Below are positions 1,830 through 22,947 of a DNA stretch of 33,013 bases, in pieces. The notes beneath the pieces are model-generated. The model had not been told where the DNA came from. It did no database searches and saw only the letters and a list, made by a program, of their open reading frames with translations. A program made the translations under genes and the position numbers. Every line of letters starts with the position of its first letter. Positions within the stretch are counted from its first letter, which is position 1. Source of the stretch: Planctomycetota bacterium (lineage in GTDB: Bacteria > Planctomycetota > UBA1135 > UBA2386); NCBI GenBank assembly GCA_947501605.1, contig CANMWZ010000044.1, forward strand, positions 1 to 33,013, in the 5' to 3' direction.

Positions 1830-3317
1830 GTGAAGCAGGGGACGCTTCCGCAGCGGTTGGCCTTCGCTGGTCGCATGGTGCTCCTGGTGGGCTCCTTGCT
1901 CGGCGGCTGCACTGCTGTTGTGTTTGCGTGGTGGCCGAAGACCGTTGACACCTTCGAGGCTTGGCTCCGCGAGCGCCACACGGCGCCGTTCGATGAGGCA
2001 TGGGCAGAAGCGGTGGCCGCGCGCGCCGCGGCGGACTCTGGGCGCGAGCGCGCACTGCTGGTCGCGCTGTCCGAGCGGGTCGGTCCGACGGCCCAACTCG
2101 ATCGGCGCCGACCGATGGCGGTGAAGGTACAGAATCGCCTCGTCGAGTTGCATCGTGAGGCAGGCGACAGCCGCAGTGCCCTCGTCGGCCTTCGGCGCCT
2201 CCGTGCGATCGACCCCAATTCGGTGCTGATCGCGCGCGATCTTGCGGTGCAGTTGTTCTCGGATCCGGGGACGCGTGCCGAGGCCTACACCTTGTTGCTC
2301 GGGGATCCGGCCGTCTACGGCAGCGGCTTCGCTTGGCGACTGCCGGCGCAGGCGGAACTCCTGAGTCCGTTGGTCGATGCGCTGGCTAGTGATGGTCGCC
2401 TGGACGAAGCTCGCAAGCTCGTCGTCACCGCGGCGTCCTGGCCCGAGCCGAAGTGGTGGTCGATCTACTGGTGGGACAAAGAGTACGACCCCCTGAAAGT
2501 CGCCGGGTGCCAGCCTCGGGTTCGCGCGGATTCTGTGCTCCAGGTCGACTTCTTCGGGCGCGACGCGATTCGGGGCCTGCGCATCCTGCCGCCGGCGTTC
2601 GCCAGCTGCTGCCTTTCCGACCCGAAGTGGTGGGTGCGCGAAGCTGGCGATGCCGAGTTCCAGCCACTGCCGATGCGCCGCGGGGCGACGCAGAATCTGC
2701 GCGAGGTCGGCTCGACGCTCGAGCTCCTCGGCAACGCTGACCCGATGGTGACGTTCGAGCTGCAGCAACCGCTGCCGGCCGGCGAGCGTGAGTTTCGCTT
2801 CACGGCAGACTTCAAGGACACCGCCCCGGAGTGGTTGGCGCGCCTCGCGTTGACGAAGTGCGGGCCGCAGCTCGCCGACGGCGATGGGGCGGCGGCAAAG
2901 ACCCTGGCCGAGCTGCGCCGAGTCGGATTCGCGTCACTCGTTCTCGAAGCGTTCTGGGAAACCGCTCCGGGCGGGTTCTCGACCGGGGACAAGGTCCGTG
3001 TCCCGCTCGCAGCCTCGCTGCAGCGAGATGGCGGCGCAAGCTTTGCCGTCGATGTGCCGCTGCCTGCAGAGTGGACTGTCTTGCGTCTCGATCTTGGCAC
3101 CGGCGAGTTCGCGACCTGGCGGTTCGACTGCATGGAACTGCGCGACGAGGGTGGAGTGGTTCTGTCCCCCGCGCCACTGCAGGACGCGGCGCTGCATGAC
3201 GTGGAATGGAAGGACCACGAACTCATCGCCACGGGTGTCGATGCCCAGCTCCAGTTCGTACGGCCAGCGGGCACCGAGCGAGCTCGCGTGCTGCACGTGG
3301 AGGGCCTGATCCGATGA
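1830..3317 (+). CDS. Hypothetical membrane-anchored protein: N-terminal TM, TPR-like helices, two beta-sandwich-like domains
   Basis: GTG at 1830 preceded by GAGGA. The upstream extension of the 1494 ORF is Arg-rich and looks non-coding. Hydrophobic segment MVLLVGSLLGGCTAVVFAWW. Stop overlaps the next start (ATGA at 3314-3317). Confidence 0.7.
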   Translation: MKQGTLPQRLAFAGRMVLLVGSLLGGCTAVVFAWWPKTVDTFEAWLRERHTAPFDEAWAEAVAARAAADSGRERALLVALSERVGPTAQLDRRRPMAVKVQNRLVELHREAGDSRSALVGLRRLRAIDPNSVLIARDLAVQLFSDPGTRAEAYTLLLGDPAVYGSGFAWRLPAQAELLSPLVDALASDGRLDEARKLVVTAASWPEPKWWSIYWWDKEYDPLKVAGCQPRVRADSVLQVDFFGRDAIRGLRILPPAFASCCLSDPKWWVREAGDAEFQPLPMRRGATQNLREVGSTLELLGNADPMVTFELQQPLPAGEREFRFTADFKDTAPEWLARLALTKCGPQLADGDGAAAKTLAELRRVGFASLVLEAFWETAPGGFSTGDKVRVPLAASLQRDGGASFAVDVPLPAEWTVLRLDLGTGEFATWRFDCMELRDEGGVVLSPAPLQDAALHDVEWKDHELIATGVDAQLQFVRPAGTERARVLHVEGLIR

Positions 3318-6151
3318 GTTCGTTGCGCAACTCGCTCGCCGTCTGCTGGCACTGGTCATGGATCTTCACGCTGCCGATGGTGGTGATGTTCGTGCACTGG
3401 GGCCTGCGCACCGGTCAGCAGTTCGCGCAGTTCGGATTGCGCATCGATATCGCGCCGTTCGAGTTCACCCTGCGGGAGACGGGCAAACTCGAGTTCGCCC
3501 ACATGCTGCGCAGCCTCGGCCTGCAGTTCTCCGGCACGGTCCCGCGTGACGACGACGGGTGCACACTGCGGACCGTCGAGTTGTTCTTGGGTGACGAGGA
3601 GATCGAGACGCTCGACGCCGACCTGCCGTACTCGGGCGAGCACAACCAAGGCGGCCGCCTCCGCTTTCAAGGCACGGACTACGACGTCAGTCTGCGCTAC
3701 CGCGGCGACACCGTGCTGCACTGGGGCTACTTCAAGAAGTCGTTCCGCGTCACCACCAAGAAGGGGCAGCTGGTCGAGGGCATGCGCAAGTTCAACCTCG
3801 TCGTCGGCAAGACCGACGAGCAGCTGAACAACCATCTCTCCTACCGCCTCGCCAACCGCCTGGGCCTGATCACGCCGACGTGCGAGCTGGTCCGCGTGTT
3901 CGTGAACGGCACGTACCACGGTCTCTACGAACTGACGGAGCAGCTCGAAGAGGGCACGCTGCGTCGCCACGACCGCATGCCCGGCGACCTCTACTCGGGC
4001 GAGATGATCATGCTCGACAACATCGAGGGCACGACGAACCGTGTGTTCGAGTACCCACGGGTGTGGAGCAAGGTTGCGGCCAACAACCACTACGAACTCG
4101 CAAGTCGTGCCCCGCTGGAGCGACTGCACGCGATCCTGCAAGGCAATCCCGATGAGTCGAGCCTCGCGGCTCTGGCGCAACTGGTCGATCTCGATCGGTT
4201 CGCGCGGTTCTCGGCGCTGGAAGTCTTGACGCAGACGCAGCACAACGACCATCGGCACAATTGGCGGCTGTTCTGGGACCCGTGGCGCTTGCGCTTCGAA
4301 CCGGTGGTGTGGGACATCGTCGGCTGGCACGAGTCGATGCGACCAGAAGGCAACCAGGGCGTCGACCTCGAGATCATCAGCAGCCAGCTGCACGAGTGGC
4401 TGCACATGCACGCGGAGTTCCTGCGAGCGCGGTATCGCCACCTGCATCACTTCTTCGCCGGCGGTCACGACGATGCGTTCTTGGCGGAAGCCGAACGCGA
4501 ACTGGAACAGGCCCTTCTGGCGCTGCGCGCGGACCCCAACGCCATGCCGCAGAACGCCAACCGGATCGTCGCGGCGATGGCGGACTTCACGGCGTTCATC
4601 CACCGCGCCTTCCGCGCCGTCGAAGCGAACTATGTGAACGGGACGGAGACGCTCCGCTGGTGCCCGGCGGCCGCCGGCGGCGCGATCGATCTCGAAGTCG
4701 CGACGCGGCGCCCGATGAATGCGGTCGAGATCGACTTCGACGGCCCGCAGATGCCGACGAGCGTCAAGTTGGTGCTCCTGCGCGACGGCGCCGAGCAAAC
4801 AACGGATCTCACGTCGCATTCGTCGCTGTCGACCGGCGCGTTGCGCGTTCCGGTGGCATTGATCTCCGAGTTGGCCCGCGAGTTCGAGTATCGCGGTCGA
4901 GCCAACAGTCTGCGCAACTCGCGTCGTCGTGTGGTGGCGACCTCGCTGCGCCTCGTTCTCGACGGCGTCGATGTCGGCCGCATCCGCGAGGTGTGGGCTC
5001 TGCGCGACGAAGGCCGCGACCCGTTCCAACGAACGGCAACACTGAGTCGTCGGCCCGTCGGTACGCTCTTCCAGCTAGCGACGCCACCGAACACGACCTT
5101 TCGATCCCTTGCTGGTGAGATTGCGATCAAGGGCGTCACCGAGGTGGTAGATCCCGTGCGCATCGCGGCGGGTACGACATTCCGGCTGGATCCGGGCGCA
5201 TCGCTGCTGTTTCGCAACCGCGTGATTGCGGAGGGCACCAAGGAAGCGCCGATCCGATTCGAACCGACCGAGGGCGGACAGGCTCCGTGGGGCACGATCG
5301 CGATCAACGGGCCGCAGTGCGCCGACTCGGTGTTTCGCTGGTGCACGGTTCGCGGCGGCAGTGGCTACAAGGTCCCGCTCGAGGAGTACTGCTCGATGTT
5401 CTCGGTGCACAACTGCACTGGCATCCGCATCGAGGACTGCGCGTTCTCGGAGAATCGCGAGTACGACGACATGATTCATGTGATGTACTCCGAGGTCGTG
5501 TTTGACCGCGTGACGTTGACGGCGGCGCGGGCGGACGCGCTCGATTGCGACATCAGCACAGTGATCATCAAGAACAGTTCGTTTCCGCGCAGCGGCAACG
5601 ACGGGGTGGACTTGATGACGACGCGCGCACTCGTCCTCGACTGCACCTTCGAAGGCAACGGCGACAAGGGCATCTCGATCGGCGAGGGATCGCGACTGAT
5701 CGGCTTGCGCAATCGTTTCCGTGGTTGCAGCAAAGGGATGGAAGCCAAGGACGGCTCGATCGCGTGGCTCGCCAACTGCGATATCCGTGGCTGCAAGAAA
5801 GCACTGAACGCCTACAAGAAGAACTGGCGCTATGACTCAGGCGGCTACATCACGGTCACCAAGTCTTTCGTCGGCGAAAACGGTTCGCTGCCGACCGCTG
5901 ACGTCTGGTCCCGTGCCCAGTTGCTCGATTGCCAGGTGAAGGGCGAGCTCGTCGCGGACTACGACCAGGAGTACGTCGACGGCTCGAGCACTCGCATGCG
6001 CAACACCGCGCGCCTCGTCGACTGCGACGGTGGTCCCGGCCCGAAAATGCGCCTGCCGCTGCCGTTCCCTCTGGAACTCGGGATGCTCGAGCCACTCGCG
6101 AGTTCGGAGTGGGGCACCGTTCGTAGCGATGTTCGTGGAGGTGTCCAGTGA
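3314..6151 (+). CDS. CotH kinase family protein with C-terminal right-handed beta-helix (pectin lyase-like) domain
   Basis: ATG at 3314 in ATGA overlap; N-terminal TM. CotH motifs RYRGD...KKSFRV, VFVNGTYHGLYELTEQ, HNDHRHNW.LF, EPVVWD. C-terminal beta-helix repeats (DALDCDIS, GNDGVDLM, GDKGISIGEGS, KGMEAKDGS). Confidence 0.85.
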   Translation: MSSLRNSLAVCWHWSWIFTLPMVVMFVHWGLRTGQQFAQFGLRIDIAPFEFTLRETGKLEFAHMLRSLGLQFSGTVPRDDDGCTLRTVELFLGDEEIETLDADLPYSGEHNQGGRLRFQGTDYDVSLRYRGDTVLHWGYFKKSFRVTTKKGQLVEGMRKFNLVVGKTDEQLNNHLSYRLANRLGLITPTCELVRVFVNGTYHGLYELTEQLEEGTLRRHDRMPGDLYSGEMIMLDNIEGTTNRVFEYPRVWSKVAANNHYELASRAPLERLHAILQGNPDESSLAALAQLVDLDRFARFSALEVLTQTQHNDHRHNWRLFWDPWRLRFEPVVWDIVGWHESMRPEGNQGVDLEIISSQLHEWLHMHAEFLRARYRHLHHFFAGGHDDAFLAEAERELEQALLALRADPNAMPQNANRIVAAMADFTAFIHRAFRAVEANYVNGTETLRWCPAAAGGAIDLEVATRRPMNAVEIDFDGPQMPTSVKLVLLRDGAEQTTDLTSHSSLSTGALRVPVALISELAREFEYRGRANSLRNSRRRVVATSLRLVLDGVDVGRIREVWALRDEGRDPFQRTATLSRRPVGTLFQLATPPNTTFRSLAGEIAIKGVTEVVDPVRIAAGTTFRLDPGASLLFRNRVIAEGTKEAPIRFEPTEGGQAPWGTIAINGPQCADSVFRWCTVRGGSGYKVPLEEYCSMFSVHNCTGIRIEDCAFSENREYDDMIHVMYSEVVFDRVTLTAARADALDCDISTVIIKNSSFPRSGNDGVDLMTTRALVLDCTFEGNGDKGISIGEGSRLIGLRNRFRGCSKGMEAKDGSIAWLANCDIRGCKKALNAYKKNWRYDSGGYITVTKSFVGENGSLPTADVWSRAQLLDCQVKGELVADYDQEYVDGSSTRMRNTARLVDCDGGPGPKMRLPLPFPLELGMLEPLASSEWGTVRSDVRGGVQ

Positions 6152-6897
6152 CCAGTGAAGGCACGACGAAGCTCCACTTCTTGCGGTTCGAGTTCAAGTA
6201 CGTGCTCGACCAGGATCTGCGTGCCGCAGTCGAGGCCGAGCTGCAGCACTTCGTCCAGCTCGACCCCCACGTGCAGAAGCAGCCGAACCATCTCTACTTC
6301 GTCCGGAGTCTGTACTTCGATGACGCGGCGATGTCGGCGTTCCATGCCAAGACCGACGGCATGCTGACGCGTTCTAAGTTTCGGGTGCGCACGTACAGCC
6401 GAGCGGTGGATGCCCCGGCGCCGTGGTTCTTGGAGATCAAGGGCCGGCACAATCAGCTCGTGTTCAAGCACCGGACGCCGATCCTCGGTGACTTCGACCG
6501 GAGCGCCGATGGCGAACACCTGACCAAGGTGCTGGTGAAGCACGGCCAGCCTGGGGCTGTCCGCGACCAGTTCGAGTTCAGTGTGTTCCGGCACGGCATC
6601 CGTCCGGTCGCACTCGTCGACTACGTGCGTCGCCCGTACGTAAGCAGGTTCGACCCCGACTTTCGGCTCACGTTCGACAGCAGTTTGTCCACGTGCGCGA
6701 CCGACACGATGTTCCCCGACCCTGCTGCGCGAACGCGTCTGGTGATGCGTGGCTACACGGTGATGGAAGTTAAGTTCCGCCACCATGTGCCGGCGTGGTT
6801 CCACCGCATCCTGCAGGCCTACGAACTGCGCCGCCGCTCGATCTCCAAGATCTGCGAAAGCACCGTCGCACTTGGTCTCCAACCTGCTGACGTCTGA
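6148..6897 (+). CDS. VTC domain (polyphosphate polymerase-like, CYTH/TTM fold) protein
   Basis: GTGA overlap with the upstream stop. Motifs RFEFKY, VRSLYFDD, RSKFRVRTY, FLEIK, Y.RRPY, RLTFD, VMEVKF, ISK. Confidence 0.9.
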   Translation: MTSEGTTKLHFLRFEFKYVLDQDLRAAVEAELQHFVQLDPHVQKQPNHLYFVRSLYFDDAAMSAFHAKTDGMLTRSKFRVRTYSRAVDAPAPWFLEIKGRHNQLVFKHRTPILGDFDRSADGEHLTKVLVKHGQPGAVRDQFEFSVFRHGIRPVALVDYVRRPYVSRFDPDFRLTFDSSLSTCATDTMFPDPAARTRLVMRGYTVMEVKFRHHVPAWFHRILQAYELRRRSISKICESTVALGLQPADV

Positions 6898-6917
6898 CTC
6901 CGACCCGAGACCCGATC

Positions 6918-7628
6918 ATGTTGAACGCACTCGTAATCCAGTTGCCGCAAGGCGTGCCGCAGCAAAGCGTCGAGACCGTGATGAGTCTCGACATGTTCTC
7001 CGCCATCGCGCGGACCGTCACCGCGATGCTGATTGGACTGGTGCTTGCACTCGTCTATCGATCGACCCACAAGGGACTGTCGTACTCGCAGTCTTTCACG
7101 CAGACGATCGTGTTCATCACCGTGATCGTGGCGCTGGTGATGATGACCGTGCGCAACAGTCTCGCGACCGCGTTCACGCTGGTCGGAGCACTGTCGATCA
7201 TCCGGTTCCGCACTGTCGTCAAGGACACCCGTGACACCTCGTTCGTGTTTGCTGCCCTCGCTCTGGGCATGGCCGCGGGCCTTGGCTTCTGGGAGCTGGC
7301 AGGTCTCGGCACGATCGCGATGGCGGCGCTCGCCCTCGGCCTGTACGCGACCAATTTCGGCGCGCTCTACAAGAGCGAGTTCATCCTTCGCTTCACCTTC
7401 GACCAGAACAAGGACAGCGCCGCCTACTTGACCAAGATCAGTGAGTTCGCCAAGCGGTCGAACATGCTGCATATCGAGCCGTCGGGCGATAGCCGCAGCC
7501 TGCGTCTCACCTACGACATCACGCTGGTGAAGGACGCTTCCGCCGAGGCCATGACCGGTGCGTTGAGTCGCGTCGACGGCGTGTCCGACGTGGTGTTGAT
7601 CGTCAGCAAGAACGACGTCGACTACTAA
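6918..7628 (+). CDS. DUF4956 domain membrane protein (MgtC/SapB-like TM region plus C-terminal ACT-like domain)
   Basis: Motifs SYSQSF, LVGALSIIRFRT.VKD.RD..FVF, LALGMAAG; several TM helices; typical position next to a VTC gene. Alternative start at ATG 6981. Confidence 0.9.
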   Translation: MLNALVIQLPQGVPQQSVETVMSLDMFSAIARTVTAMLIGLVLALVYRSTHKGLSYSQSFTQTIVFITVIVALVMMTVRNSLATAFTLVGALSIIRFRTVVKDTRDTSFVFAALALGMAAGLGFWELAGLGTIAMAALALGLYATNFGALYKSEFILRFTFDQNKDSAAYLTKISEFAKRSNMLHIEPSGDSRSLRLTYDITLVKDASAEAMTGALSRVDGVSDVVLIVSKNDVDY

Positions 7629-7692: not shown

Positions 7693-8694
7693 ATGGTCCG
7701 CGTCTTGTTCTTGGCTCTGTGCCTGCCAGCCTTGCTGCTGCAGTCGTGCAGCAAGGCGCAAGAGGCGACGTCGGCAGGCTCGACGACTGTCGCCGCCGCG
7801 GTTGCGCCGTTCGACTTTGCGGCGCCGGTGTCGGTGCTGCCGTTGCCGAAGTCGTTGCGTGAGATCTCCGGCTTGATCGCGCTCGACGGCGAGCGCGTAG
7901 CCTGCATTCAGGACGAGAAGGGACAGTTCTTCGAAGTGCGATTGAACGACGGCGTCCTGCTGACGAAGGTGCGGTTTGGCCCCGACGGTGACTACGAGGG
8001 CTTGGCGCGTGTTCCGGGCGCCTGGTTCGCGGTGCGCAGCGATGGCGTCTTGCTGCGCATGCGCGAGGTCGATGGTTCGCTGCAAGCGGCGGAGGCCTTT
8101 GTGTTGGCGCTGCCGCAACGCGACTGTGAGGCGTTGTGTGTCGATCGCGACGGCACGCGCCTTTTGGTCGCCGGTAAGGCGCAGCCAGAAGGAGGCGCGG
8201 CCGAGCAGGACCGCCGGTTCGTGTACGCGTGGGATCTTGCTACGGCACAACTGGTCAGCGAGCCGGCCCTGCAGTTGTCGGTCGAAGCGATCTTGGCCGC
8301 AGCCGTCGCGCGCGGACTGACGACGCCGACCAAGGCCAGCAAGTCGAGCCAGGGTGTCCCAGTGGCTGGCCCAAGCGACGATCCCGAGGTGGCTGCCTTG
8401 GCGACGGCGCCGCCGCCGCGAGCGCACCTTGCGCTGCGCATAACCGAGCTTGCCGTCAACCCTTCGACCGGCGATGTCTGGATCCTGTCGGCTCAGGATC
8501 GAGTGCTGTTGGCGGTCGATCGCCGCGGCGCTCTGGTCTGGCTGCACACCTTCGCCGAAGCGTTGCTGCCGCAGCCGGAGGCGCTTGCCTTCCTGCCTGA
8601 CGGCGACCTGCTGGTCGCCAGTGAAGGACGCGACGGACCTGCGGTGCTGGTGCGGTTTGCCGCCCGCCGGCTGCCCGGGGCGAGTTCGAAATGA
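7693..8694 (+). CDS. SdiA-regulated/YjiK-like beta-propeller lipoprotein (phytase-like esterase superfamily)
   Basis: Lipobox LLLQSC; motifs LREISGL, IQDEKG, GDYEGLA, DCEAL, PQPEALAF..GDLLVASEG. Confidence 0.75.
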   Translation: MVRVLFLALCLPALLLQSCSKAQEATSAGSTTVAAAVAPFDFAAPVSVLPLPKSLREISGLIALDGERVACIQDEKGQFFEVRLNDGVLLTKVRFGPDGDYEGLARVPGAWFAVRSDGVLLRMREVDGSLQAAEAFVLALPQRDCEALCVDRDGTRLLVAGKAQPEGGAAEQDRRFVYAWDLATAQLVSEPALQLSVEAILAAAVARGLTTPTKASKSSQGVPVAGPSDDPEVAALATAPPPRAHLALRITELAVNPSTGDVWILSAQDRVLLAVDRRGALVWLHTFAEALLPQPEALAFLPDGDLLVASEGRDGPAVLVRFAARRLPGASSK

Positions 8695-8764: not shown

Positions 8765-9190
8765 ATGAAGTCCCTCTTCGCGTTCGCCTTCCCCCTGTTG
8801 CTCACCGCCGTGGCGGGGGCCCAGACCTGCAACTTCCAACTCTTTGGTCGCCCTTGCGGCGGCAATCTCGCCGGCCAGCAGGTCACGACGCCCACGGCCC
8901 AGGGCATCCGCTTCGATGGTTCGGGACTGGCGCCAGGGGCCATTGCGATCCTGGTGCTCGGCCAGCAAGCCGCGGCGCCCATCGCCCTGCCGGGCTCGAC
9001 CTGCCAACTCCTCGTCCAGCACAGCAACACGGTGGTGGCCCAGGCCGATCGCACCAATGCCGTGATGTTCCGGTTTCCGATGCCGGCCCGGCTGCCGATC
9101 ACGGCCGACTTCCAGATCGTCACGATCGGCTTCACGCGCAATGGGCGCATCGCCGAGTCGACCAACGGCGTCACGATCGCCTGCCGCTGA
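8765..9190 (+). CDS. Small secreted beta-rich hypothetical protein
   Basis: AAGGAG RBS upstream and an extended -10-like TGCTAACCT at 8713-8721. Signal peptide MKSLFAFAFPLLLTAVAGA/Q; Cys-containing FGRPCGG and PGSTCQLLV. Confidence 0.75.
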   Translation: MKSLFAFAFPLLLTAVAGAQTCNFQLFGRPCGGNLAGQQVTTPTAQGIRFDGSGLAPGAIAILVLGQQAAAPIALPGSTCQLLVQHSNTVVAQADRTNAVMFRFPMPARLPITADFQIVTIGFTRNGRIAESTNGVTIACR

Positions 9191-9309: not shown

Positions 9310-9831
9310 ATGACTCTGACGCCAGAAGTTGCCTTCGAACAGCATCGCGAGCGATTGCTGTCGGTGATCTACCTGCGCATGGGGCCGCAACTCCGGACGC
9401 GCATGGACGCCGAAGACGTCATGCAGGAAGTCGCGATCGAGGCGATCAACTCATGGCACACGCTGTCGGAGCCGCAGAACGCCGGCGCCTGGCTCGTGAC
9501 CCTGGCCAAGCGCAAAGTCGCCCGCATCCTGCGTGATCAGATTGGCGTGGCGGCGCGCAATCCGAATCGAGAACGGCAGGTGCTCACCGATTTGCCGATC
9601 GCCGATCGCCGCTCCGGTCCGGTTACGGCGGCGGACCGTCGCGATCGTCTCGAATTGCTGGGGCAGGCACTCGAGCGACTGTCCGAGGACTATCGCGAGG
9701 TCGTGTTGCTGACCAAGATCGAGGGCTTGCCGGCCAAGGAAGTTGGCGTCCGCATGGACCGTTCCGAGAATGCCGTCAATCTGCTGTTGAGCCGCGCCCT
9801 CAAGCGTTTGGCCGAGGAGCTCAAGCTGTGA
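9310..9831 (+). CDS. ECF-type RNA polymerase sigma-70 factor
   Basis: Sigma2 region DAEDVMQE...AWL..LA and sigma4 region LERLSEDYREVVLL..IEGL..KEV...M.RS..AV..LL.RA; 173 aa. Confidence 0.9.
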   Translation: MTLTPEVAFEQHRERLLSVIYLRMGPQLRTRMDAEDVMQEVAIEAINSWHTLSEPQNAGAWLVTLAKRKVARILRDQIGVAARNPNRERQVLTDLPIADRRSGPVTAADRRDRLELLGQALERLSEDYREVVLLTKIEGLPAKEVGVRMDRSENAVNLLLSRALKRLAEELKL

Positions 9832-12425
9832 CCGGGGACGGCCCGCACGAGCCCGAGGCAGCGCCGCTACCTGACAACGACTCCAGCATGGTCGACGGCC
9901 GCATGGCGGATCTGCTGGCCTCGGGCCGCACTGGCTCGGATGTGCGCCGAGAGCTGGAGCAGACCACGACACCCGAGGGCGAGGATCTGCTCAGTCGGCT
10001 CAATGCGCTGGACTTCCTCACCGGCATCGTTGGCGAGGCCTCGGACATGCCCGAGCGCCTGGGCGACTACCGCATCACCGGTCTGCTCGGCCGCGGTGGC
10101 ATGGGCACGGTCTACCTGGCCTATCAGGAAGAGCTCGAGCGCGAAGTCGCGTTGAAGGTGTTGGCGCCGGCGTGGTCGTCGGACCCGACGATGCGTCAGC
10201 GCTTTCGCGCCGAGGCTCGAGCGACTGCCGCGCTGCACCATCGCCACATCGTCCCGATCTACGACTATGGCGAGGCCCAAGGGCGCTTGTTCTTCGCCAT
10301 GGAACGCGTCGACGGGCTCAGCCTCGACAAGCACATCAACGCGGCCCGCCGCCGCAACGAGCGGCCGCTCGAACCGCGCGAGGCTGCTCGGCGTTTTGCC
10401 GGCGTCGCCGACGCGCTCGGCCTCGCGCATCGCCGTCGGTTGCTGCATCGCGATGTGAAGCCAGGCAACATCCTGGTCGCGACGGATGGCACCTTGGCGC
10501 TGACGGACTTTGGCCTCGCCAAGGCGCTGGACCAGGGGTCGATGCGGCTCACGTCGAAGAGCGGCGGGTTTCTCGGGACTCTGCACTACAGCTCACCCGA
10601 GCAGGCGATGGGCGGCAACTTGACGCCGGCGAGCGACCTCTACTCGCTTGGTGTCACGATGTACGAGGCCGTCAGCGGCGAGCTGCCGCTATCGGGCAAG
10701 ACCACCGAGAACGTGCTGCAGCAGATCCTCTACGGCTCGCCACGGCGTCTGCGCGACGTCTTGCCAAAGCCGCCGAAGGACCTCGAAGCCGTCATCGACA
10801 AGTTGCTGAGCCGCGAGCCAGGCGATCGCTACCAGGACGGTGAAGAGCTGTCGCGTGATCTCGCGCGCATCGCCGACGGCGAGCCGGTGCACATTCGCAA
10901 GCTGCCCATGGTGGTGCGCCTGCTTCGTCGCGTGCGCAAGAACCCGGTGTTGGCCGGCGCGATCATCGCAGCGTCGGTGCTGCTGTTGGTCACGGTGCTG
11001 CTCGTGCGCGTCTTGCGCGAAGAGAAAGGGCAGAGCTTGCTGTCGCGGCACCAGGTCAACCTCGTCAACGTCGCCAATCAGGTGCGCGCTGAAATGGGAT
11101 CGCCGTGGGGGCCAGCGCCGATGTTGCAGTGCCTCATCGGCGGCGAGCCGGTACCGGTCGTCGCGGCGAGCGAAGGCATGGTGGCGATGCTCGCGCGCCT
11201 CGCTGCCGAAGTGCCCGACGACATCATCCCGCAGCGCATGCTGGCCGGCTACCAGTCGGACCCGCTGCCGGCTGCCAGCGAGTTGCTTGCCCGTGGGCAA
11301 GGGCTCGAAGCACTGGCGTTGTACGACGCCGCGATCGGCAGCGAGGTTTCCATGCGCACGTTCGCCGACCTGTCGGTGGACCTGCGCCTGTACTCGCTCT
11401 ATCTCGGCCGCGCCTGCGCCTTCCTGACGGCTTCCGTGATGCGGCCGATCGATGCGCGTCGCGACCTCGACCTCGCTTCGTTTCTCCGGCCGAGCTCGGT
11501 CTTTCCGCGCGCACTCGCAGTCGTTTTGCGCCTCAGCGAGGCTGCCGACGTCGACGCCGAGTTGGCTGAGATCGAACGTGAGTTGCAGAGTGCGGGTGCG
11601 GACCGTCGTGCGGTAGTGGGACGTCTGCTCCTGGCGATGGCGTCGCTCCGCGTTGCGGTCGACGCCAACCTGATGCCATTCCCGATGTCCTTTGGCGAAC
11701 GTGAGCGCGTGCACGACCTCGGCGCCCGGCTCGCCGACGTACAGCCGAACGCCCCTGCTGGGAACGGCGCCCCGACCGGGTGCGCGCGCGAACTACACGC
11801 GCTCGCGCTGCAGTTCGCCAACAGCCTCGGCTCGGCCCAAGCAACCGCGCCATTGGCGGAACAGCTACGGGCGCGAGTCCAGCTCTCGGTGCACCCGCAA
11901 TCGGCGCTGCAAGGCTACTTCGGTGCCGTCCAGTTGCTCGAACGACCGCGTTCGTCCGCGCCGTTGCTCGATGCCATTGGTCAGCAGATGACGCCGGCCC
12001 TCGAACTCGCGTCCTGGGCCGTGGTGCAGCAGCTTGCGCCGCCGCCGGAATTGCTCGGACGCCTGATCCCGCGCTTCCTGCGCTTCGTCGATGACCACGC
12101 GGATCTCGACGGCATCGTGCCGGTCGCCGCGGGACTTGCCCTGGCGTCGCGCTCGGATCGCGCCGCTGAGTTTGCTCGCACTTGGCGCGTCGCCGACTCG
12201 GATGACCCAGGCGCCTTGCGCTGTCGCCTCGAGCTGTCGCTGCGCGAAGGGAACCTCGATGCGGGGCTCGATGACGCGATGGAGTTCGTCCAACGATCGC
12301 GCGATCGCGCCGAGGCAATCAAGATCGTGGTCCGCACGTGTGGCGCGATGAGCGCGGATGCGCCCGAGGCCACTCGCAAAGGCATCGACGACCTCGGCGC
12401 CCGCTTCGAGGAACTGCTGCGATGA
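9828..12425 (+). CDS. Hanks-type Ser/Thr protein kinase with TM helix and C-terminal helical/TPR-like domain
   Basis: GRGGMG, VALK, HRDVKPGN, DFG, GTLHYSSPE, SDLYSLG; TM VLAGAIIAASVLLLVTVLLV; GTGA overlap with the sigma gene. Confidence 0.92.
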   Translation: MTGDGPHEPEAAPLPDNDSSMVDGRMADLLASGRTGSDVRRELEQTTTPEGEDLLSRLNALDFLTGIVGEASDMPERLGDYRITGLLGRGGMGTVYLAYQEELEREVALKVLAPAWSSDPTMRQRFRAEARATAALHHRHIVPIYDYGEAQGRLFFAMERVDGLSLDKHINAARRRNERPLEPREAARRFAGVADALGLAHRRRLLHRDVKPGNILVATDGTLALTDFGLAKALDQGSMRLTSKSGGFLGTLHYSSPEQAMGGNLTPASDLYSLGVTMYEAVSGELPLSGKTTENVLQQILYGSPRRLRDVLPKPPKDLEAVIDKLLSREPGDRYQDGEELSRDLARIADGEPVHIRKLPMVVRLLRRVRKNPVLAGAIIAASVLLLVTVLLVRVLREEKGQSLLSRHQVNLVNVANQVRAEMGSPWGPAPMLQCLIGGEPVPVVAASEGMVAMLARLAAEVPDDIIPQRMLAGYQSDPLPAASELLARGQGLEALALYDAAIGSEVSMRTFADLSVDLRLYSLYLGRACAFLTASVMRPIDARRDLDLASFLRPSSVFPRALAVVLRLSEAADVDAELAEIERELQSAGADRRAVVGRLLLAMASLRVAVDANLMPFPMSFGERERVHDLGARLADVQPNAPAGNGAPTGCARELHALALQFANSLGSAQATAPLAEQLRARVQLSVHPQSALQGYFGAVQLLERPRSSAPLLDAIGQQMTPALELASWAVVQQLAPPPELLGRLIPRFLRFVDDHADLDGIVPVAAGLALASRSDRAAEFARTWRVADSDDPGALRCRLELSLREGNLDAGLDDAMEFVQRSRDRAEAIKIVVRTCGAMSADAPEATRKGIDDLGARFEELLR

Positions 12426-15268
12426 TCGACCGCAAACTCGGGATCTTCCTGGCTGCGCTCGTGCTCGTTGCGATCGCCACGGTGACGTGGTGGGTCGTGC
12501 ACGATGCCTCGAACGCACCGTTCGACGATCCGGTGCCGGCTCAGCCGACGGCCAGCGGTCAGGTGACCCCGCTCGCACCTGCCATTGCTCCCGCCCCGGC
12601 CCCACTGTCCAAAGATCGCAGCGAGACCGGCCTGCTCGGCGTCGTGCTGCAGCCCGACGGCCGTCCTGCCGCTGGGACCACGGTCACTCTGTTCCGTCAG
12701 CAGTCGGCATGGCCCGAGTGGCGCCGTGAGCCGATCGAGTCGGTGGAGACTGGCGGCGACGGTGCGTTTGCGTTTGCCACTCCGCGCGCACCCCACCTGC
12801 TGGTCGGCTTCGAGCACCCTGACTTCGCCGGTGACGTGCAGGAGGCTCCTGCATCGCTGCGCGAACTGGTGCTGCATCTGCAGCGCGGCTTCGACGTCGA
12901 GGGCATCGTCACCAACGATGCCGGCCTACCGATGCCGAACGTCCGGGTGTCGCTGGAGTCGACGTTGGTCGACGAGCGAGTCGTGAGCGCGACCGACACC
13001 AGCAGTGCTGGCCGGTTCCGCTTCCGCAACGTGGCGATGGGGACCATGCGTGTGGTAGCGCGGCATGAATGGTGGCAGCCAGCGGTGCTCGCCAACGTGG
13101 TCGTCGGCTCGTTCGTCCGCACTCTCGAACTGCGCTTCTCCCGCCCGGCGCTGGCGCTCGAGGGGCGCGTTATGTCGTCGGCAACGCAGGAGCCGGTCGC
13201 CGGCGCTCTGGTGCTGGCGTTGCCGCCGGTGCATCGTCTGGGTCGCAACGAGCCAGCCACGACGACCACGTTGGCCGATGGTTCCTTCCGGCTGGCCGGG
13301 CTTGCGCGCGGCGTTCTGCGCCTCGAAGTGCGGCACCCGGACTACGCGACTGTCGGTCGCTCCGTTGCTGTCGGCTCCGGCTTCGCGCCGCAGACCTTCG
13401 ATCTGCTGCCGCGCGGCGAGGTGCGCGGCCGCCTCGATGCGGCCGACAGCGAACTGTTCCAGGGCGCGGTGCTGACGCTGCGCAGCGCGGTCGATGAACT
13501 GGTGACCACGGAAGTGCAAGCCGACGGCTCGTTCGTGTTTTCGCGAACCGTCACTCCCGGCGCTGCCTCGCTTTCGGTCGCCGGCGGGCGCTTCGCCTTC
13601 GCGTCGGGTTCGAGCGTCTTGACCATCAAGGTAGAAGAGGCCGGCGTTCCTTTGGTGCTGGATGTGCTGAGCCCGGCAATCGTCACGGCGCGCGTCGTCG
13701 ATGCGGCCGGTTTGCCGATCGCGGGCGCACGCATCACCGCGCCCGCAACCGGGATGCTGCTCGACCGCCTGTCGCGCGCCGGCAACGCACTGCTCGATCG
13801 CAACATCGGCAAGCTCGGGGACCAGTTGACGCGTTCCGCTGCCGGCGAACCCGAGCCCTTGCTCGCGGTGACGGACGACAAAGGGCGCTTCCGCGTCGCC
13901 GGACTCGCCCCCGGCGCCGTCACGTTGCGAGCCGCCCGCGAAGGCTACGGCAGCAGCCAAGTCGAAGTCGTGATGCCGTTGTGCGGCGAAACCTTGGAGG
14001 CCGCCGCGATCTCGTTGCCTGATGGCTGTCGGATTCGCGGCCGCGTGCAGCGCGGTGGGCGGCCGATGCCAGGTGTGCAGGTCGGCGTCGTCGTTGATGG
14101 CCTTGCCGTCACCGCGGTGACCGGGCTCGACGGCACCTACGAGCTTGTTGATCTGTTGCCCGGTGAGTACCGCGTTTCGGCTCGCTACTCGACGTTTCCC
14201 TCGGTCAAGGCCCGCGATGCCGCGAAGGCAGATGCTCGCACCCCGGTGGTCGTCGATCTCGAACTGCCGGCAGGCCGCACGATTCGCGGGATCGTCACCG
14301 GGACCGACGGGCAACCGGTCGAGGGCGCGGTGGTGCTGATCCGTGGCGAGCAGGTCAACCCCGTGCTCTGCGACAGCAACGGCGTGTTCGAACTCGAAGC
14401 CCCCAATCGCGAGGTCGAACTCGTGGTCGGGCAATCGGACCGCGGCGCGCGCAAGATCGTGCCGGTCAAGATCGGCGATGACCGCGTCAACATCGCGATC
14501 GAGGCAATGCCCGACAGCACGGTCACTGCGCGCGTGCTCGGGTTGCCCGGTCGCCGAGCGATCCCTGGTGTGCTGATGCGCGTTGCTCGCGACGCGGGCG
14601 ATGCCGCCGCTTCGTCGCGGTGGCTCGATCTCGACAGCGGCAATTTGCGCAATCCGCTCTATCCCGCAGGCAAGTCGACGGTCGTCTTCTGGGCCGAGGG
14701 CTATGCGCCCGTCGCTCGGGAAGTCGAGGTGGCGGCTGGCCAAGAACTCGATCTCGGCGAACTGCTGCTGGAGCCAGGCTGCGTGCTACGAGGCGTCGTT
14801 CGCGATGAGCAAGGGCGACCCATTGCCGCCGCTGAGGTCTTCCTCGGCGAAGAGTCCGACTTCATGGAGTACCAGGCGCGAACCCGCAGCGACGAGCGCG
14901 GTGAGTTCGAAGTTCGCGGCGTATCGAGCGCGGCGGCGACGCTGCTGGTCCGCGCTCAAGGCTACGCCTGGAAGGCCGTGCCGCTGCGCTTGCCTGCCGA
15001 CGTGCTCGCAGAGGATCGGCTTGCAGTGTGTGCGGAGCGCGGATCGGCGATCGAAGTCAAGGTGGCCGGCCGCGACGTCGAAGGCTCGATGCTCGTGCTC
15101 CGTCGCGGCGGCCGGGTGGTGGCGACGGCGGAGGTCGACGACAACGGCGTGGCGCTCTTTCAGAACCGCGGCCCGGGCGACTATGTCGTGCAACGCTTTG
15201 GCGACGAGGCGCAGCAGGCGATCGTGCAGGTTCGCGGGTCGGGCGAAGTCTTGCGCGCCGAGCTCTGA
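12422..15268 (+). CDS. Membrane-anchored carboxypeptidase regulatory-like (transthyretin-like beta-sandwich) repeat protein
   Basis: ATGA overlap at 12422; N-terminal TM. Multiple repeats of G.V...G.P..GA.V and T...G.F.l..l..G...l.a...gy. Confidence 0.85.
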   Translation: MIDRKLGIFLAALVLVAIATVTWWVVHDASNAPFDDPVPAQPTASGQVTPLAPAIAPAPAPLSKDRSETGLLGVVLQPDGRPAAGTTVTLFRQQSAWPEWRREPIESVETGGDGAFAFATPRAPHLLVGFEHPDFAGDVQEAPASLRELVLHLQRGFDVEGIVTNDAGLPMPNVRVSLESTLVDERVVSATDTSSAGRFRFRNVAMGTMRVVARHEWWQPAVLANVVVGSFVRTLELRFSRPALALEGRVMSSATQEPVAGALVLALPPVHRLGRNEPATTTTLADGSFRLAGLARGVLRLEVRHPDYATVGRSVAVGSGFAPQTFDLLPRGEVRGRLDAADSELFQGAVLTLRSAVDELVTTEVQADGSFVFSRTVTPGAASLSVAGGRFAFASGSSVLTIKVEEAGVPLVLDVLSPAIVTARVVDAAGLPIAGARITAPATGMLLDRLSRAGNALLDRNIGKLGDQLTRSAAGEPEPLLAVTDDKGRFRVAGLAPGAVTLRAAREGYGSSQVEVVMPLCGETLEAAAISLPDGCRIRGRVQRGGRPMPGVQVGVVVDGLAVTAVTGLDGTYELVDLLPGEYRVSARYSTFPSVKARDAAKADARTPVVVDLELPAGRTIRGIVTGTDGQPVEGAVVLIRGEQVNPVLCDSNGVFELEAPNREVELVVGQSDRGARKIVPVKIGDDRVNIAIEAMPDSTVTARVLGLPGRRAIPGVLMRVARDAGDAAASSRWLDLDSGNLRNPLYPAGKSTVVFWAEGYAPVAREVEVAAGQELDLGELLLEPGCVLRGVVRDEQGRPIAAAEVFLGEESDFMEYQARTRSDERGEFEVRGVSSAAATLLVRAQGYAWKAVPLRLPADVLAEDRLAVCAERGSAIEVKVAGRDVEGSMLVLRRGGRVVATAEVDDNGVALFQNRGPGDYVVQRFGDEAQQAIVQVRGSGEVLRAEL

Positions 15269-22753: not shown

Positions 22754-22947
22754 AGTGGCGAAGTGCGGTTCGGTGCGGCGCAGGTCGGCGAGCCGGCCGC
22801 AAGGCTTGGCTGTCGCTGGCTGCTCGGCCTAGCTTGCAGGGTGCCGCACTCTACCAACCTTCGGCTCAGTCGGGACTTGGGACCATCAGTGGCGGGATCC
22901 CGACAGGGAGCTCCACAAGTCTGCCAACGTCGACGATAATCCGACGC

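Follow-up and report, generated by a model that had tools for sequence, protein, structure and literature searches.

A CotH kinase-VTC-DUF4956 operon of a planctomycete as a candidate polyphosphate-fuelled system for phosphorylation outside the cytoplasm

A four-gene operon encoding a membrane-anchored TPR protein, a CotH kinase fused to a beta-helix, a VTC enzyme and a DUF4956 membrane protein was found in a 33,013-nucleotide stretch of Planctomycetota DNA (the window, meaning the whole stretch that was analyzed) from source genome G000, which is 91% complete. In other genomes, operons containing VTC and DUF4956 also carry an unrelated histidine dikinase with a signal peptide, an association that is new here. 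The explanation to which we tentatively lean is that polyphosphate made by the VTC protein crosses the membrane via DUF4956 and fuels the exported kinase.

Table 1. Genes of the operon and the gene downstream of it (window coordinates)
Feature	Position	Strand	Details
Membrane-anchored TPR accessory protein gene	1830-3317	+	GTG start, 495 aa
CotH kinase-beta-helix gene	3314-6151	+	ATG start, 945 aa
VTC gene	6148-6897	+	GTG start, 249 aa
DUF4956 gene	6918-7628	+	ATG start, 236 aa
Lipoprotein-like gene	7693-8694	+	333 aa; lipobox-like N-terminus; weak phytase-like / SdiA-regulated match

The tight packing of four co-oriented genes reported in a preliminary description of this locus was confirmed by the ORF coordinates, with an ATGA overlap (3314-3317), a GTGA overlap (6148-6151) and a 20-bp gap (6898-6917) at the three junctions. 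GC content at the third codon position was 0.80 to 0.86 for the four ORFs, and the starts at 1830 and 3314 matched those of homologues. DUF4956 followed VTC in all 23 related loci, 19 of which also had CotH and 12 a first-gene homologue, a recurrence indicating that the arrangement is a real operon rather than a chance one. Contigs from four public RNA-library runs (three studies) matched the window, mostly at 99% identity or above, and spanned the first two junctions. These contigs support the assembly; as they cover genes and gaps alike, they do not demonstrate expression. Some RNA-library runs may derive from the source sample. Four listed RNA-library runs contained next to none of the sequence words of the window, and a scan for promoters and terminators returned no more signals than shuffled sequence. 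The downstream lipoprotein-like gene was retained beside the locus in close relatives only (e.g., L021, L028 and L063); it is possibly cotranscribed with the operon and at most a candidate member of the system.

Pfam matches upheld the earlier assignment of three of the products to the CotH, VTC and DUF4956 families. The VTC protein (E = 2e-31) stands alone and is soluble, having neither a signal nor a membrane helix. A single-sequence search against solved structures gave no significant match, while a profile matched chains of Vtc4, Vtc2 and Vtc3 only, the best being Vtc4 structure 3g3q (E = 2.8e-15). The substrate and metal ligands of Vtc4 are K200, R264, R266, K281, Y359, R361, E426, S457 and K458 (bioRxiv 2023.01.27.525886). 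When mapped by hand counting on an alignment with 8i6v, all nine were found to be kept in the window protein (K17, R79, R81, K98, Y159, R161, E207, S233 and K234), and they were invariant wherever aligned in 83 rows of VTC sequences, which include a few duplicate loci, with the exception of S233 (79 of 82); a second conservation set comprised 43 sequences. K234 corresponds to K458, by which catalytic Vtc4 differs from Vtc2/3; residues equivalent to Vtc4 R196, K294, R373 and K428 were likewise conserved. Judged from these alignments, the active site is of an intact Vtc4 type, with polyphosphate synthesis from ATP as a prediction only. At the position of Vtc4 T198 the family has an invariant glutamate, E15, which belongs to the ExExK metal motif and is absent from Vtc4; its retention resembles hydrolytic tunnel enzymes and may count against the preferred explanation. 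No measured activity of any bacterial VTC was found in the literature searched. The source genome also encodes PPK1 and PPK2, which was counted in favor of the preferred explanation. An ABC-ATPase-VTC fusion was seen as one protein on a single contig and was not used as evidence.

The DUF4956 protein (E = 9e-15) has five helices of the MgtC/SapB type (residues 26 to 145) followed by an ACT-like C-terminal domain (residues 151 to 231), and carries an invariant R96-F97-R98 with acidic residues at 103 and 106 where helix 3 meets the cytoplasm. Its AlphaFold2 model had a pLDDT of 81.4 overall and 87.5 for the membrane part, and the C-terminal domain matched ACT folds, including the C-terminal domain of MgtC (7qa5; Z = 8.9, rmsd 3.0, 86 residues aligned). 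MgtC matches were obtained for 35 of 40 DUF4956 members (E = 0.34 for the window protein and 8e-7 for the best member), and the NCBIfam MgtC/SapB model matched at E = 7e-6, with 25.7 bits against a cutoff of 214. On these scores, DUF4956 is a distant relative of MgtC/SapB that falls below the family cutoff rather than a member.

Vtc1 belongs to the DUF202 family, and the preliminary description had proposed that VTC and DUF4956 form a split version of the VTC complex. HHalign of the membrane part gave 89% against four MgtC proteins and 0.3% against two bacterial DUF202 proteins (a shallow template), and DUF202 was not among the best 25 of 38 families listed for DUF4956 members. Conserved basic residues are found in loops on the cytoplasmic side and at the end of a helix rather than in a transmembrane ladder such as that of Vtc TM1, and few charged residues lie within the helices. 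Searches of solved structures with the single sequence and with a profile gave no significant match. Among the matches listed for fold searches with the full and membrane-only models there was no Vtc1, Vtc3 or Vtc4 chain, although a missing match does not imply a different fold; the membrane-part model matched generic helical bundles best, with archaeal virus coat proteins reaching a Z of 9.3, a value that such bundles commonly span. DUF4956 is hence MgtC-like with no sequence kinship to the Vtc channel, and a "split VTC complex" is an analogy at best.

VTC and DUF4956 were tightly linked. Across 61 related genomes, each of the 61 VTC genes had DUF4956 within 5 kb. Outside this set, two VTC genes lacked it in the retrieved flanks. 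Conversely, 6 of 70 DUF4956 genes had no VTC in their flanks; a hidden divergent VTC was sought beside these and not found, and two of them (L044 and L045) adjoin CotH in genomes with no VTC match. The VTC tree shared 33 of its 37 well-supported splits with the DUF4956 tree (distance r = 0.94), a congruence that adjacency alone could yield. No VTC-DUF4956 fusion was found in a weak search among longer VTC relatives. Modeling of VTC on oligomeric DUF4956, suggested in the preliminary description as a check, lent weak support to an interaction. The prediction with three DUF4956 copies scored 0.38 (runs of 0.02, 0.38 and 0.53) against 0.00 for the best control, with at least 40% of contacts shared between runs and a partner pLDDT of at least 70. 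In the calibration, 116 of 157 solved pairs passed the mark, as did 2 of 215 mismatched ones; scores of 0.60 or below account for only 18 of the 157 solved pairs but for both mismatches, and this job is unlike the calibration set.

The kinase contains a CotH domain (residues 127 to 335; E = 7e-21) and a right-handed beta-helix (residues 697 to 837; E = 2e-10), the latter unnamed in the preliminary description. Its only hydrophobic helix is N-terminal (residues 8 to 27; mean hydropathy, 1.57) and looks like an uncleaved anchor, with a slight charge bias around it. The catalytic domain is predicted to face outward from the inner membrane, in line with the exported CotH-type kinase of the preliminary description, with the difference that the protein is apparently anchored. 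Nearly all module kinases that were complete had a single N-terminal hydrophobic segment, as determined with a hydropathy script and by eye; in the beta-helix type, most basic residues flanked it on the N-terminal side, and the lamin-tail type had cleavable-type signals. Retained residues include R130-G131, K141-K142-S143, E209, D312, H315-N316 and W333-D334. The protein matched Bacillus cereus CotH (5jd9) at E = 7.5e-9 with a single sequence and 2e-30 with a profile; W333 and D334 aligned with the WD of 5jd9, and D312 lay one residue off its aspartate in the pairwise alignment; of 41 beta-helix kinases, 21 have D at this position. From their spacing, residues equivalent to D228 and D251 of Bacillus subtilis CotH and W245 of the B. 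cereus protein are inferred. The adenine-stacking position was aromatic in 36 of the 41 beta-helix kinases. Some module kinases (L026 and L027) have lost catalytic residues.

The first-gene protein has an N-terminal membrane helix (residues 10 to 36, by hydropathy), a TPR region at about residues 100 to 195 and a beta-rich C-terminal part whose family was not recognized. The Pfam match to TPR_14 was weak (E = 0.004), but a profile of 16 homologues matched TPR structures across the same positions. An Atlas search with this protein, including the C-terminal part, returned unnamed clusters and no named family, with all TM matches below 0.5. The homologues are fast evolving, with no invariant column in the alignment, and in related loci they lie directly upstream of a CotH-beta-helix gene. 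This protein is probably a scaffold for the kinase; its gene is outside the conserved core of the system.

Co-occurrence of CotH, VTC and DUF4956, which the preliminary description had set as a check, was supported in two lineages. Among 201 Planctomycetota genomes, 54 carried both VTC and CotH, 7 VTC only, 10 CotH only and 130 neither; Fisher tests on such counts ignore kinship and hence overstate the association. In a class sample of 151 genomes around a genome titled Gammaproteobacteria, VTC was found in four, the seed included, and DUF4956 in exactly these four, with CotH in each locus. Absence of a Pfam CotH match is unreliable, since CotH-beta-helix proteins beside VTC were missed by Pfam in G043, G050, G056 and G364. 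Despite long flanks, 10 of 60 VTC loci had no co-oriented kinase within 5 kb, one of them in a congener whose synteny matches apart from the missing first two genes; all 10 had CotH elsewhere in the genome. Only 4 of the 61 VTC genomes of the phylum sample had neither CotH nor the dikinase, including one with a degraded locus and one with a locus at a contig end. Genomes with one to four VTC-DUF4956 pairs had as many as 26 CotH matches. HlyD adaptors followed 13 of 60 VTC loci, phosphate porin O/P genes flanked 2, and glycan-biosynthesis genes were frequent neighbors. In other genomes, the kinase slot was occupied by a CotH with lamin-tail domains together with an HlyD adaptor.

The alternative partner is unrelated to CotH and combines a signal peptide, EF hands, a His motif and PPDK_N, an AMP/ATP-binding domain. 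Every genome found to carry it, 13 of the 61 relatives and 11 of the 201 genomes of the phylum sample (with G014 counted in both), also has VTC; it is not encoded in the source genome. The dikinase gene directly followed DUF4956-VTC in G005, G014, G021, G233 and G277, of which G277 and the single-contig, 94%-complete G014 lacked a Pfam CotH match; 7 of 48 metagenome dikinase loci had VTC and/or DUF4956, in three arrangements. It lay away from VTC in 9 of the 13 relatives carrying both, which was counted against the preferred explanation. The presence of the pair beside two unrelated exported phosphotransferases suggests a general supply unit for such enzymes and, by extension, a way in which bacteria may fuel extracytoplasmic phosphorylation.

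The preliminary description held bacterial VTC and DUF4956 to be uncharacterized. No activity for either, nor any link to exported dikinases, was found in the literature searched, in which few subscription journals were covered; the triad itself, however, is already in print as accessory genes of pel loci, with no proposal of mechanism or transport. A cotH-polyphosphate polymerase-DUF4956 set was described for Gram-positive pel loci (Whitfield 2020, PMC7112168); SIR_1594/1593/1592 of Streptococcus intermedius are the same set (Raju, bioRxiv 2024.04.20.589940, PMC12345266), and NELoc-2 of Clostridium perfringens is a further case (PMC11677781). The authors of the work on pel loci could not find the set elsewhere. 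The CotH of S. intermedius and relatives is secreted or at the surface (Raju et al.). In S. intermedius, deletion of DUF4956 or CotH lowered aggregation by more than 50% in one medium, no decrease was reported for VTC deletion, and Pel levels shifted in opposite directions in the DUF4956 and CotH mutants (PMC12345266). PMC6514570, PMC8250860 and PMC10657179 contributed nothing, the "VTC" of PMC6514570 being another domain.

In the preferred explanation, VTC and DUF4956 would act together at the inner membrane as a supply unit for extracytoplasmic phosphotransfer. Cytoplasmic VTC would make polyphosphate from ATP, as its complete Vtc4-type active site suggests. It would then dock on a DUF4956 oligomer at the basic loops and ACT domains of the oligomer's cytoplasmic face, and the oligomer would hand the chain to the outer face, steps consistent with the weakly scoring model. 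There the anchored CotH protein, placed by its sequence, would spend high-energy phosphate in a putative transfer to a glycan or glycoprotein of the envelope; the most plausible way would be to recharge an adenine nucleotide bound in its pocket instead of leaving that pocket unused. The beta-helix may hold the substrate and the TPR protein may act as scaffold, with the kinase as an exchangeable client whose place is taken elsewhere by a lamin-tail CotH plus HlyD adaptor or by the exported dikinase. More generally, VTC-DUF4956 could be a bacterial and archaeal "power line", an MgtC-derived channel with a Vtc4-type polymerase, in which one to a few pairs supply polyphosphate in trans to dozens of CotH proteins and dikinases that would phosphorylate glycans or proteins at the surface, although this too falls short of an even chance. 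Polyphosphate as the donor and its direct use by CotH are made doubtful by the adenine-stacking aromatic, the ATP-grasp nature of the dikinase and the S. intermedius deletions. DUF4956 without VTC (6/70), CotH without VTC (10/201) and kinase-less VTC loci (10/60) were also counted against it. Bacterial CotH kinases number in the thousands and, like a large family of exported dikinases, are located where little ATP is presumed to be available. If correct, the proposal would add a route by which energy and phosphate cross the bacterial membrane, give bacterial VTC proteins and an MgtC-fold protein their first activity, provide a convergent parallel to the yeast VTC machine and explain the presence of these accessory genes in Gram-positive pel loci.

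The adenine-stacking aromatic of CotH and the AMP/ATP binding of PPDK_N make both clients look nucleotide dependent, as would be expected if ATP itself crossed, or was exchanged for ADP/AMP. DUF4956 would then be the essential exporter or gate, VTC an accessory loader, energizer or regulator, and the clients ordinary outer-face ATP enzymes. The shared phenotype of the DUF4956 and CotH deletions, the DUF4956-CotH loci of L044 and L045 and the literature tying MgtC to ATP synthase and phosphate control all fit. We nevertheless consider ATP export unlikely: a mere loader would not need the catalytic residues kept in nearly all 83 VTC sequences, VTC-less DUF4956 genes are a minority, no transport by an MgtC-type protein was found in the literature searched, and HlyD-type adaptors would suit an extruded polymer better than a free nucleotide. 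It is similarly improbable that nothing is transported and that DUF4956 is a regulatory adaptor coupling a cytoplasmic VTC (polyphosphate maker or triphosphate hydrolase) to the condition of the envelope or of the kinase on its outer face, with the kinase living on ambient envelope ATP. The MgtC homology and ACT domain, the few charges within the helices, the retained E15, the catalytically degenerate module kinases and the opposite Pel changes agree with such regulation, and Raju et al. suggest that polyphosphate remains cytoplasmic. It leaves unexplained, however, why two unrelated exported ATP-fold phosphotransferase families are largely limited to VTC genomes and recruited to the operon, why so few pairs accompany so many CotH proteins, and why HlyD and porin genes are neighbors. 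Least likely is export of polyphosphate as an end product (an envelope polyanion, a cation or mineral store, or a counterion for a cationic exopolysaccharide) that CotH attaches, trims or regulates without being fuelled by it, which the Vtc4-type site, the HlyD and porin O/P neighbors, the glycan-biosynthesis and pel linkage and the pairs with no nearby kinase would allow but which is opposed by the CotH genes elsewhere in all 10 kinase-less genomes and the scarcity of VTC genomes with neither kinase.

Of the known systems, the pel accessory set is alike in its three contiguous families in the order CotH-VTC-DUF4956, and in its secreted or anchored CotH, cytoplasmic VTC and MgtC-like membrane protein with an ACT domain. 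The window differs in having CotH fused to a beta-helix rather than FN3 and a TPR anchor protein in place of a DUF4832 hydrolase, and in that the triad lies in a Planctomycetota genome and is not contiguous with pelDEAFG; no pel family was found among the 23 window ORFs scanned, nor PelG in the 91%-complete source genome. Bacillus CotH (5jd9/5jda) shares the kinase motifs and adenine-stacking tryptophan position, and uses ATP as donor and coat proteins as substrate; the window protein is, in contrast, membrane anchored, 945 aa long, fused to a beta-helix and from a nonsporulating lineage. A B. subtilis control gave no match to VTC or DUF4956; the Corynebacterium glutamicum and Bacteroides thetaiotaomicron controls have CotH, VTC and DUF4956. 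MgtC/SapB shares with DUF4956 the five-helix membrane domain and ACT-like C-terminal domain, whereas DUF4956 has its own invariant RFR...D..D loop and genetic ties to VTC and exported kinases. The dikinase has the order of alpha-glucan water dikinase, with the His motif upstream of a C-terminal PPDK_N (ATP-grasp) domain, although the GWD1_pHisD match was weak and below the cutoff (E = 7.8e-4, in one of four dikinases scanned); it differs in being bacterial and in having a cleavable-type signal peptide and EF hands. Relative to the eukaryotic VTC complex (Vtc4/Vtc3/Vtc1; 3g3q, 7ytj and 8i6v; PMC9911596 and bioRxiv 2023.01.27.525886), the window VTC has neither an SPX domain nor a fused membrane domain, carries the extra E15 and has an MgtC-like rather than DUF202-like partner with no basic ladder in its helices. 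Common to both are the tunnel enzyme with its nine ligands and a small membrane partner that is always adjacent, and the coupling of synthesis to translocation may be alike.

The four-gene layout of the preliminary description was reproduced in full, down to the coordinates, the ATGA and GTGA overlaps and the 20-bp gap (see the table). The loci closest to this operon were Planctomycetota titled. Among 23 related loci, all 23 had VTC followed by DUF4956, 19 had a CotH gene and 12 had the accessory gene. Contigs from RNA libraries (four runs) backed the assembly of the operon, not its transcription. At positions 9056-9057, AA in the window, contigs of three RNA-library runs carried GG, which probably reflects strain variation. 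A lipoprotein-like gene with a weak phytase-like or SdiA-regulated match (window 7693-8694) lies immediately 3′ of DUF4956 in this genus. The window also encodes an ECF sigma factor with a coupled membrane Ser/Thr kinase and carboxypeptidase-regulatory repeat protein (9310-15268). Further on, the gene for a protein whose kinase domain scored as degenerate runs divergently from that of a GAF sigma-54 activator (19835-24804).

Coordinates of the operon genes (window) and of the exported dikinase family (within each locus)
Feature	Position	Strand	Content
Accessory gene	1830-3317	+	membrane helix and TPRs
CotH gene	3314-6151	+	Pfam CotH and right-handed beta-helix
VTC gene	6148-6897	+	Pfam VTC
DUF4956 gene	6918-7628	+	Pfam DUF4956
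Dikinase family	L051:8317-10710, L057:4560-6911, L062:7974-9359, L109:9345-11792, L178:7757-10054, L179:6789-9218, L113-L160

Among 61 related genomes, VTC was present in 40, DUF4956 in 45 and CotH in 44. Linkage was tight, with DUF4956 at most 5 kb from all 61 VTC genes; nine of the 70 DUF4956 matches were without VTC (three at contig ends, two adjoining CotH and four alone). Of the 60 VTC loci besides the window, 40 had a CotH-type gene in the same orientation no more than 5 kb away (including a beta-helix in 25), 3 had a dikinase and 17 had neither, 7 of these being at contig ends. An HlyD adaptor was present at 13 of the 60, neighbors having been scanned for selected loci only. The VTC and DUF4956 trees, built on 73 loci with the exclusion of short fragments and five duplicates, were congruent, sharing 33 of 37 supported splits, and partner types grouped by clade.

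A phylum sample of 201 Planctomycetota genomes (completeness of at least 90%; eight also among the 61 relatives) contained 54 with VTC and CotH, 7 with VTC only, 10 with CotH only and 130 with neither. The co-occurrence expected in the preliminary description was thus found, CotH accompanying VTC in 54 of 61 VTC genomes, although p values for co-occurrence are overstated because the genomes are kin rather than independent. The seven VTC-only genomes comprised two with a dikinase, one with a CotH-beta-helix gene missed by Pfam, one degraded locus, one contig end and two with VTC lacking DUF4956 in the flanks. Loci L175:7662-8501, L173:2059-2889 and L174:7470-9078 represent two VTC genes without DUF4956 in the flanks examined and one fragmented DUF4956-VTC among transposase-like ORFs. 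In 151 genomes from the class of a Gammaproteobacteria-titled seed, VTC and DUF4956 occurred in the same four, seed included, all with CotH in the locus; CotH matched in 10 of the 151, 7 over the cut-off. The same three of 14 control genomes had VTC and DUF4956, and CotH was found in those and B. subtilis only.

A congener locus, L063 (G002:C160:1-10000), had the window order of DUF3500, thioesterase, VTC, DUF4956, lipoprotein and Ser/Thr kinase genes, without the TPR and CotH genes. The genome of the window, G000, contains two further CotH genes besides the operon copy. Both observations fit service by VTC-DUF4956 in trans. CotH was expanded in G024, G017, G016, G009, G309, G350, G362 and other genomes, with up to 26 matches and up to 70 first-look candidates versus one to four VTC-DUF4956 pairs per genome. 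Phosphate-selective porin O/P genes lay inside or directly 3′ of two CotH-VTC-DUF4956 operons (L039:1448-2599 and L162:4697-5686), the latter with a 2109-aa CotH carrying lamin-tail, Calx-beta and Ig-like domains. At L041, L042, L043, L052-L054, L163 and L176, the module was inside glycan-biosynthesis clusters (GtrA, flippase, O-antigen ligase, rml genes and glycosyltransferases), also in small CPR-titled genomes.

The window CotH aligned with B. cereus CotH and retained the RG, KKS, hinge E, D-x-x-H-N and WD motifs. W333 aligned with the WD-motif tryptophan which, assuming a one-residue numbering offset, is reported to stack on adenine (bioRxiv 469122). An aromatic residue occupied this position in 36 of 41 beta-helix kinases and, if histidine is counted, in 21 of 23 others. 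By script and by eye, a single N-terminal hydrophobic segment was seen in almost every complete module kinase, resembling an anchor in beta-helix kinases and a cleavable signal in the others. On the basis of these segments CotH is probably outside the cytoplasm, as previously proposed, and the retained motifs and W333 position indicate that it can probably still bind nucleotide. Three CotH-beta-helix proteins in otherwise intact operons lacked the adenine-position tryptophan (L026:6969-10001, L027:7005-9971 and L029:6556-9366); two had also lost the catalytic aspartate and asparagine. All three are possible pseudokinases.

The new point of this analysis is that the slot of a missing CotH can be filled by an unrelated exported phosphotransferase, giving VTC-DUF4956 two unrelated exported clients. 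This dikinase has a signal peptide, EF hands or different modules at its N-terminus, a His motif (44 of 48 loci) and a C-terminal PPDK_N ATP-grasp domain, the domain order of glucan-water-dikinase, with a weak GWD1_pHisD match. The dikinase was carried by 13 of the 61 related genomes and by 11 of the 201 in the phylum sample (8 genera), and every carrier had VTC. The gene was directly 3′ of DUF4956-VTC in five genomes (G005, G014, G021, G233 and G277), and no Pfam CotH match was found in G014 or G277. It lay away from VTC in 9 of the 13 relatives and had VTC or DUF4956 nearby in 7 of 48 metagenome loci, of which two pairs were near-duplicates and many were short. It was absent from G000. One member, L138, had a weak type IX sorting-domain match.

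A VTC profile (43 homologues) matched yeast Vtc4 at E 2.8e-15. Nine Vtc4 residues hold triphosphate and Mn (bioRxiv 2023.01.27.525886); their window equivalents, K17, R79, R81, K98, Y159, R161, E207, S233 and K234, were invariant wherever aligned (83 rows), save S233 (79 of 82). K234 corresponds to Vtc4 K458, which is absent from Vtc2 and Vtc3. Where Vtc4 has T198, the aligned VTC rows have an invariant E15, which lies in the ExExK metal motif known from hydrolytic tunnel enzymes (PMC9582702). The retained ligands, tempered by E15, make the window VTC a likely polyP polymerase. PPK1 and PPK2 are also encoded in G000, so VTC would be dispensable for ordinary storage polyP. P0001, in which an ABC-transporter ATPase is joined to a VTC domain (526 aa), was seen on a single contig and could reflect an assembly error or a chance fusion.

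In the models (pLDDT 81 and 87.5), DUF4956 had five helices plus an ACT-like domain. The MgtC C-terminal domain (Z 8.9) was one of many ACT folds that this domain matched. Pfam MgtC was matched below cut-off by 35 of 40 members, and HHalign gave 89% versus MgtC and 0.3% versus two DUF202 proteins. The invariant charges R96, R98 and acidic 103 and 106 (82 of 82) were grouped at the cytoplasmic end of helix 3, and the helices had no basic ladder like that of Vtc TM1 (PMC9911596). These features argue against the earlier proposal that the pair is a split VTC complex. For VTC on a DUF4956 trimer, modeling gave a score of 0.38 (runs 0.02, 0.38 and 0.53) versus 0.00 for the best control. In a calibration set unlike this job, such low scores were obtained for only 18 of the 157 solved pairs and for both of the mismatched pairs that passed (2 of 215). 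Contacts agreed by at least 40% and partner pLDDT was at least 70. Docking of VTC on DUF4956 is weakly supported by this model.

A supply function for VTC-DUF4956, polyP or ATP taken together, appears somewhat likelier than not. Our tentative reading is that VTC would make polyP, which would cross the membrane through DUF4956 and fuel the exported kinase, probably via bound nucleotide. Export of ATP, with VTC as an accessory, is unlikely, although it best fits the VTC-less DUF4956 loci and the deletion data of Raju et al. (PMC12345266), in which loss of DUF4956 or CotH lowered aggregation by >50% in artificial sputum with opposite effects on Pel, and no decrease is reported for loss of VTC. 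Regulation without transport, as suggested by the MgtC likeness, seems improbable. PolyP as end product is less probable still.

Our literature search found no activity for bacterial VTC or DUF4956 and no tie to exported dikinases. The triad itself is already known and widespread: cotH, polyphosphate polymerase and DUF4956 are listed as pel accessory genes (Whitfield 2020; PMC7112168), and C. perfringens NELoc-2 contains VTC and CotH (PMC11677781). Raju et al. describe the same three proteins, with MgtC and ACT domains, suggest that polyP remains in the cytoplasm and found no such set outside pel loci (bioRxiv 2024.04.20.589940; PMC12345266). Compared with the pel accessory set, the window copy is a beta-helix, TPR variant located outside any pel locus.
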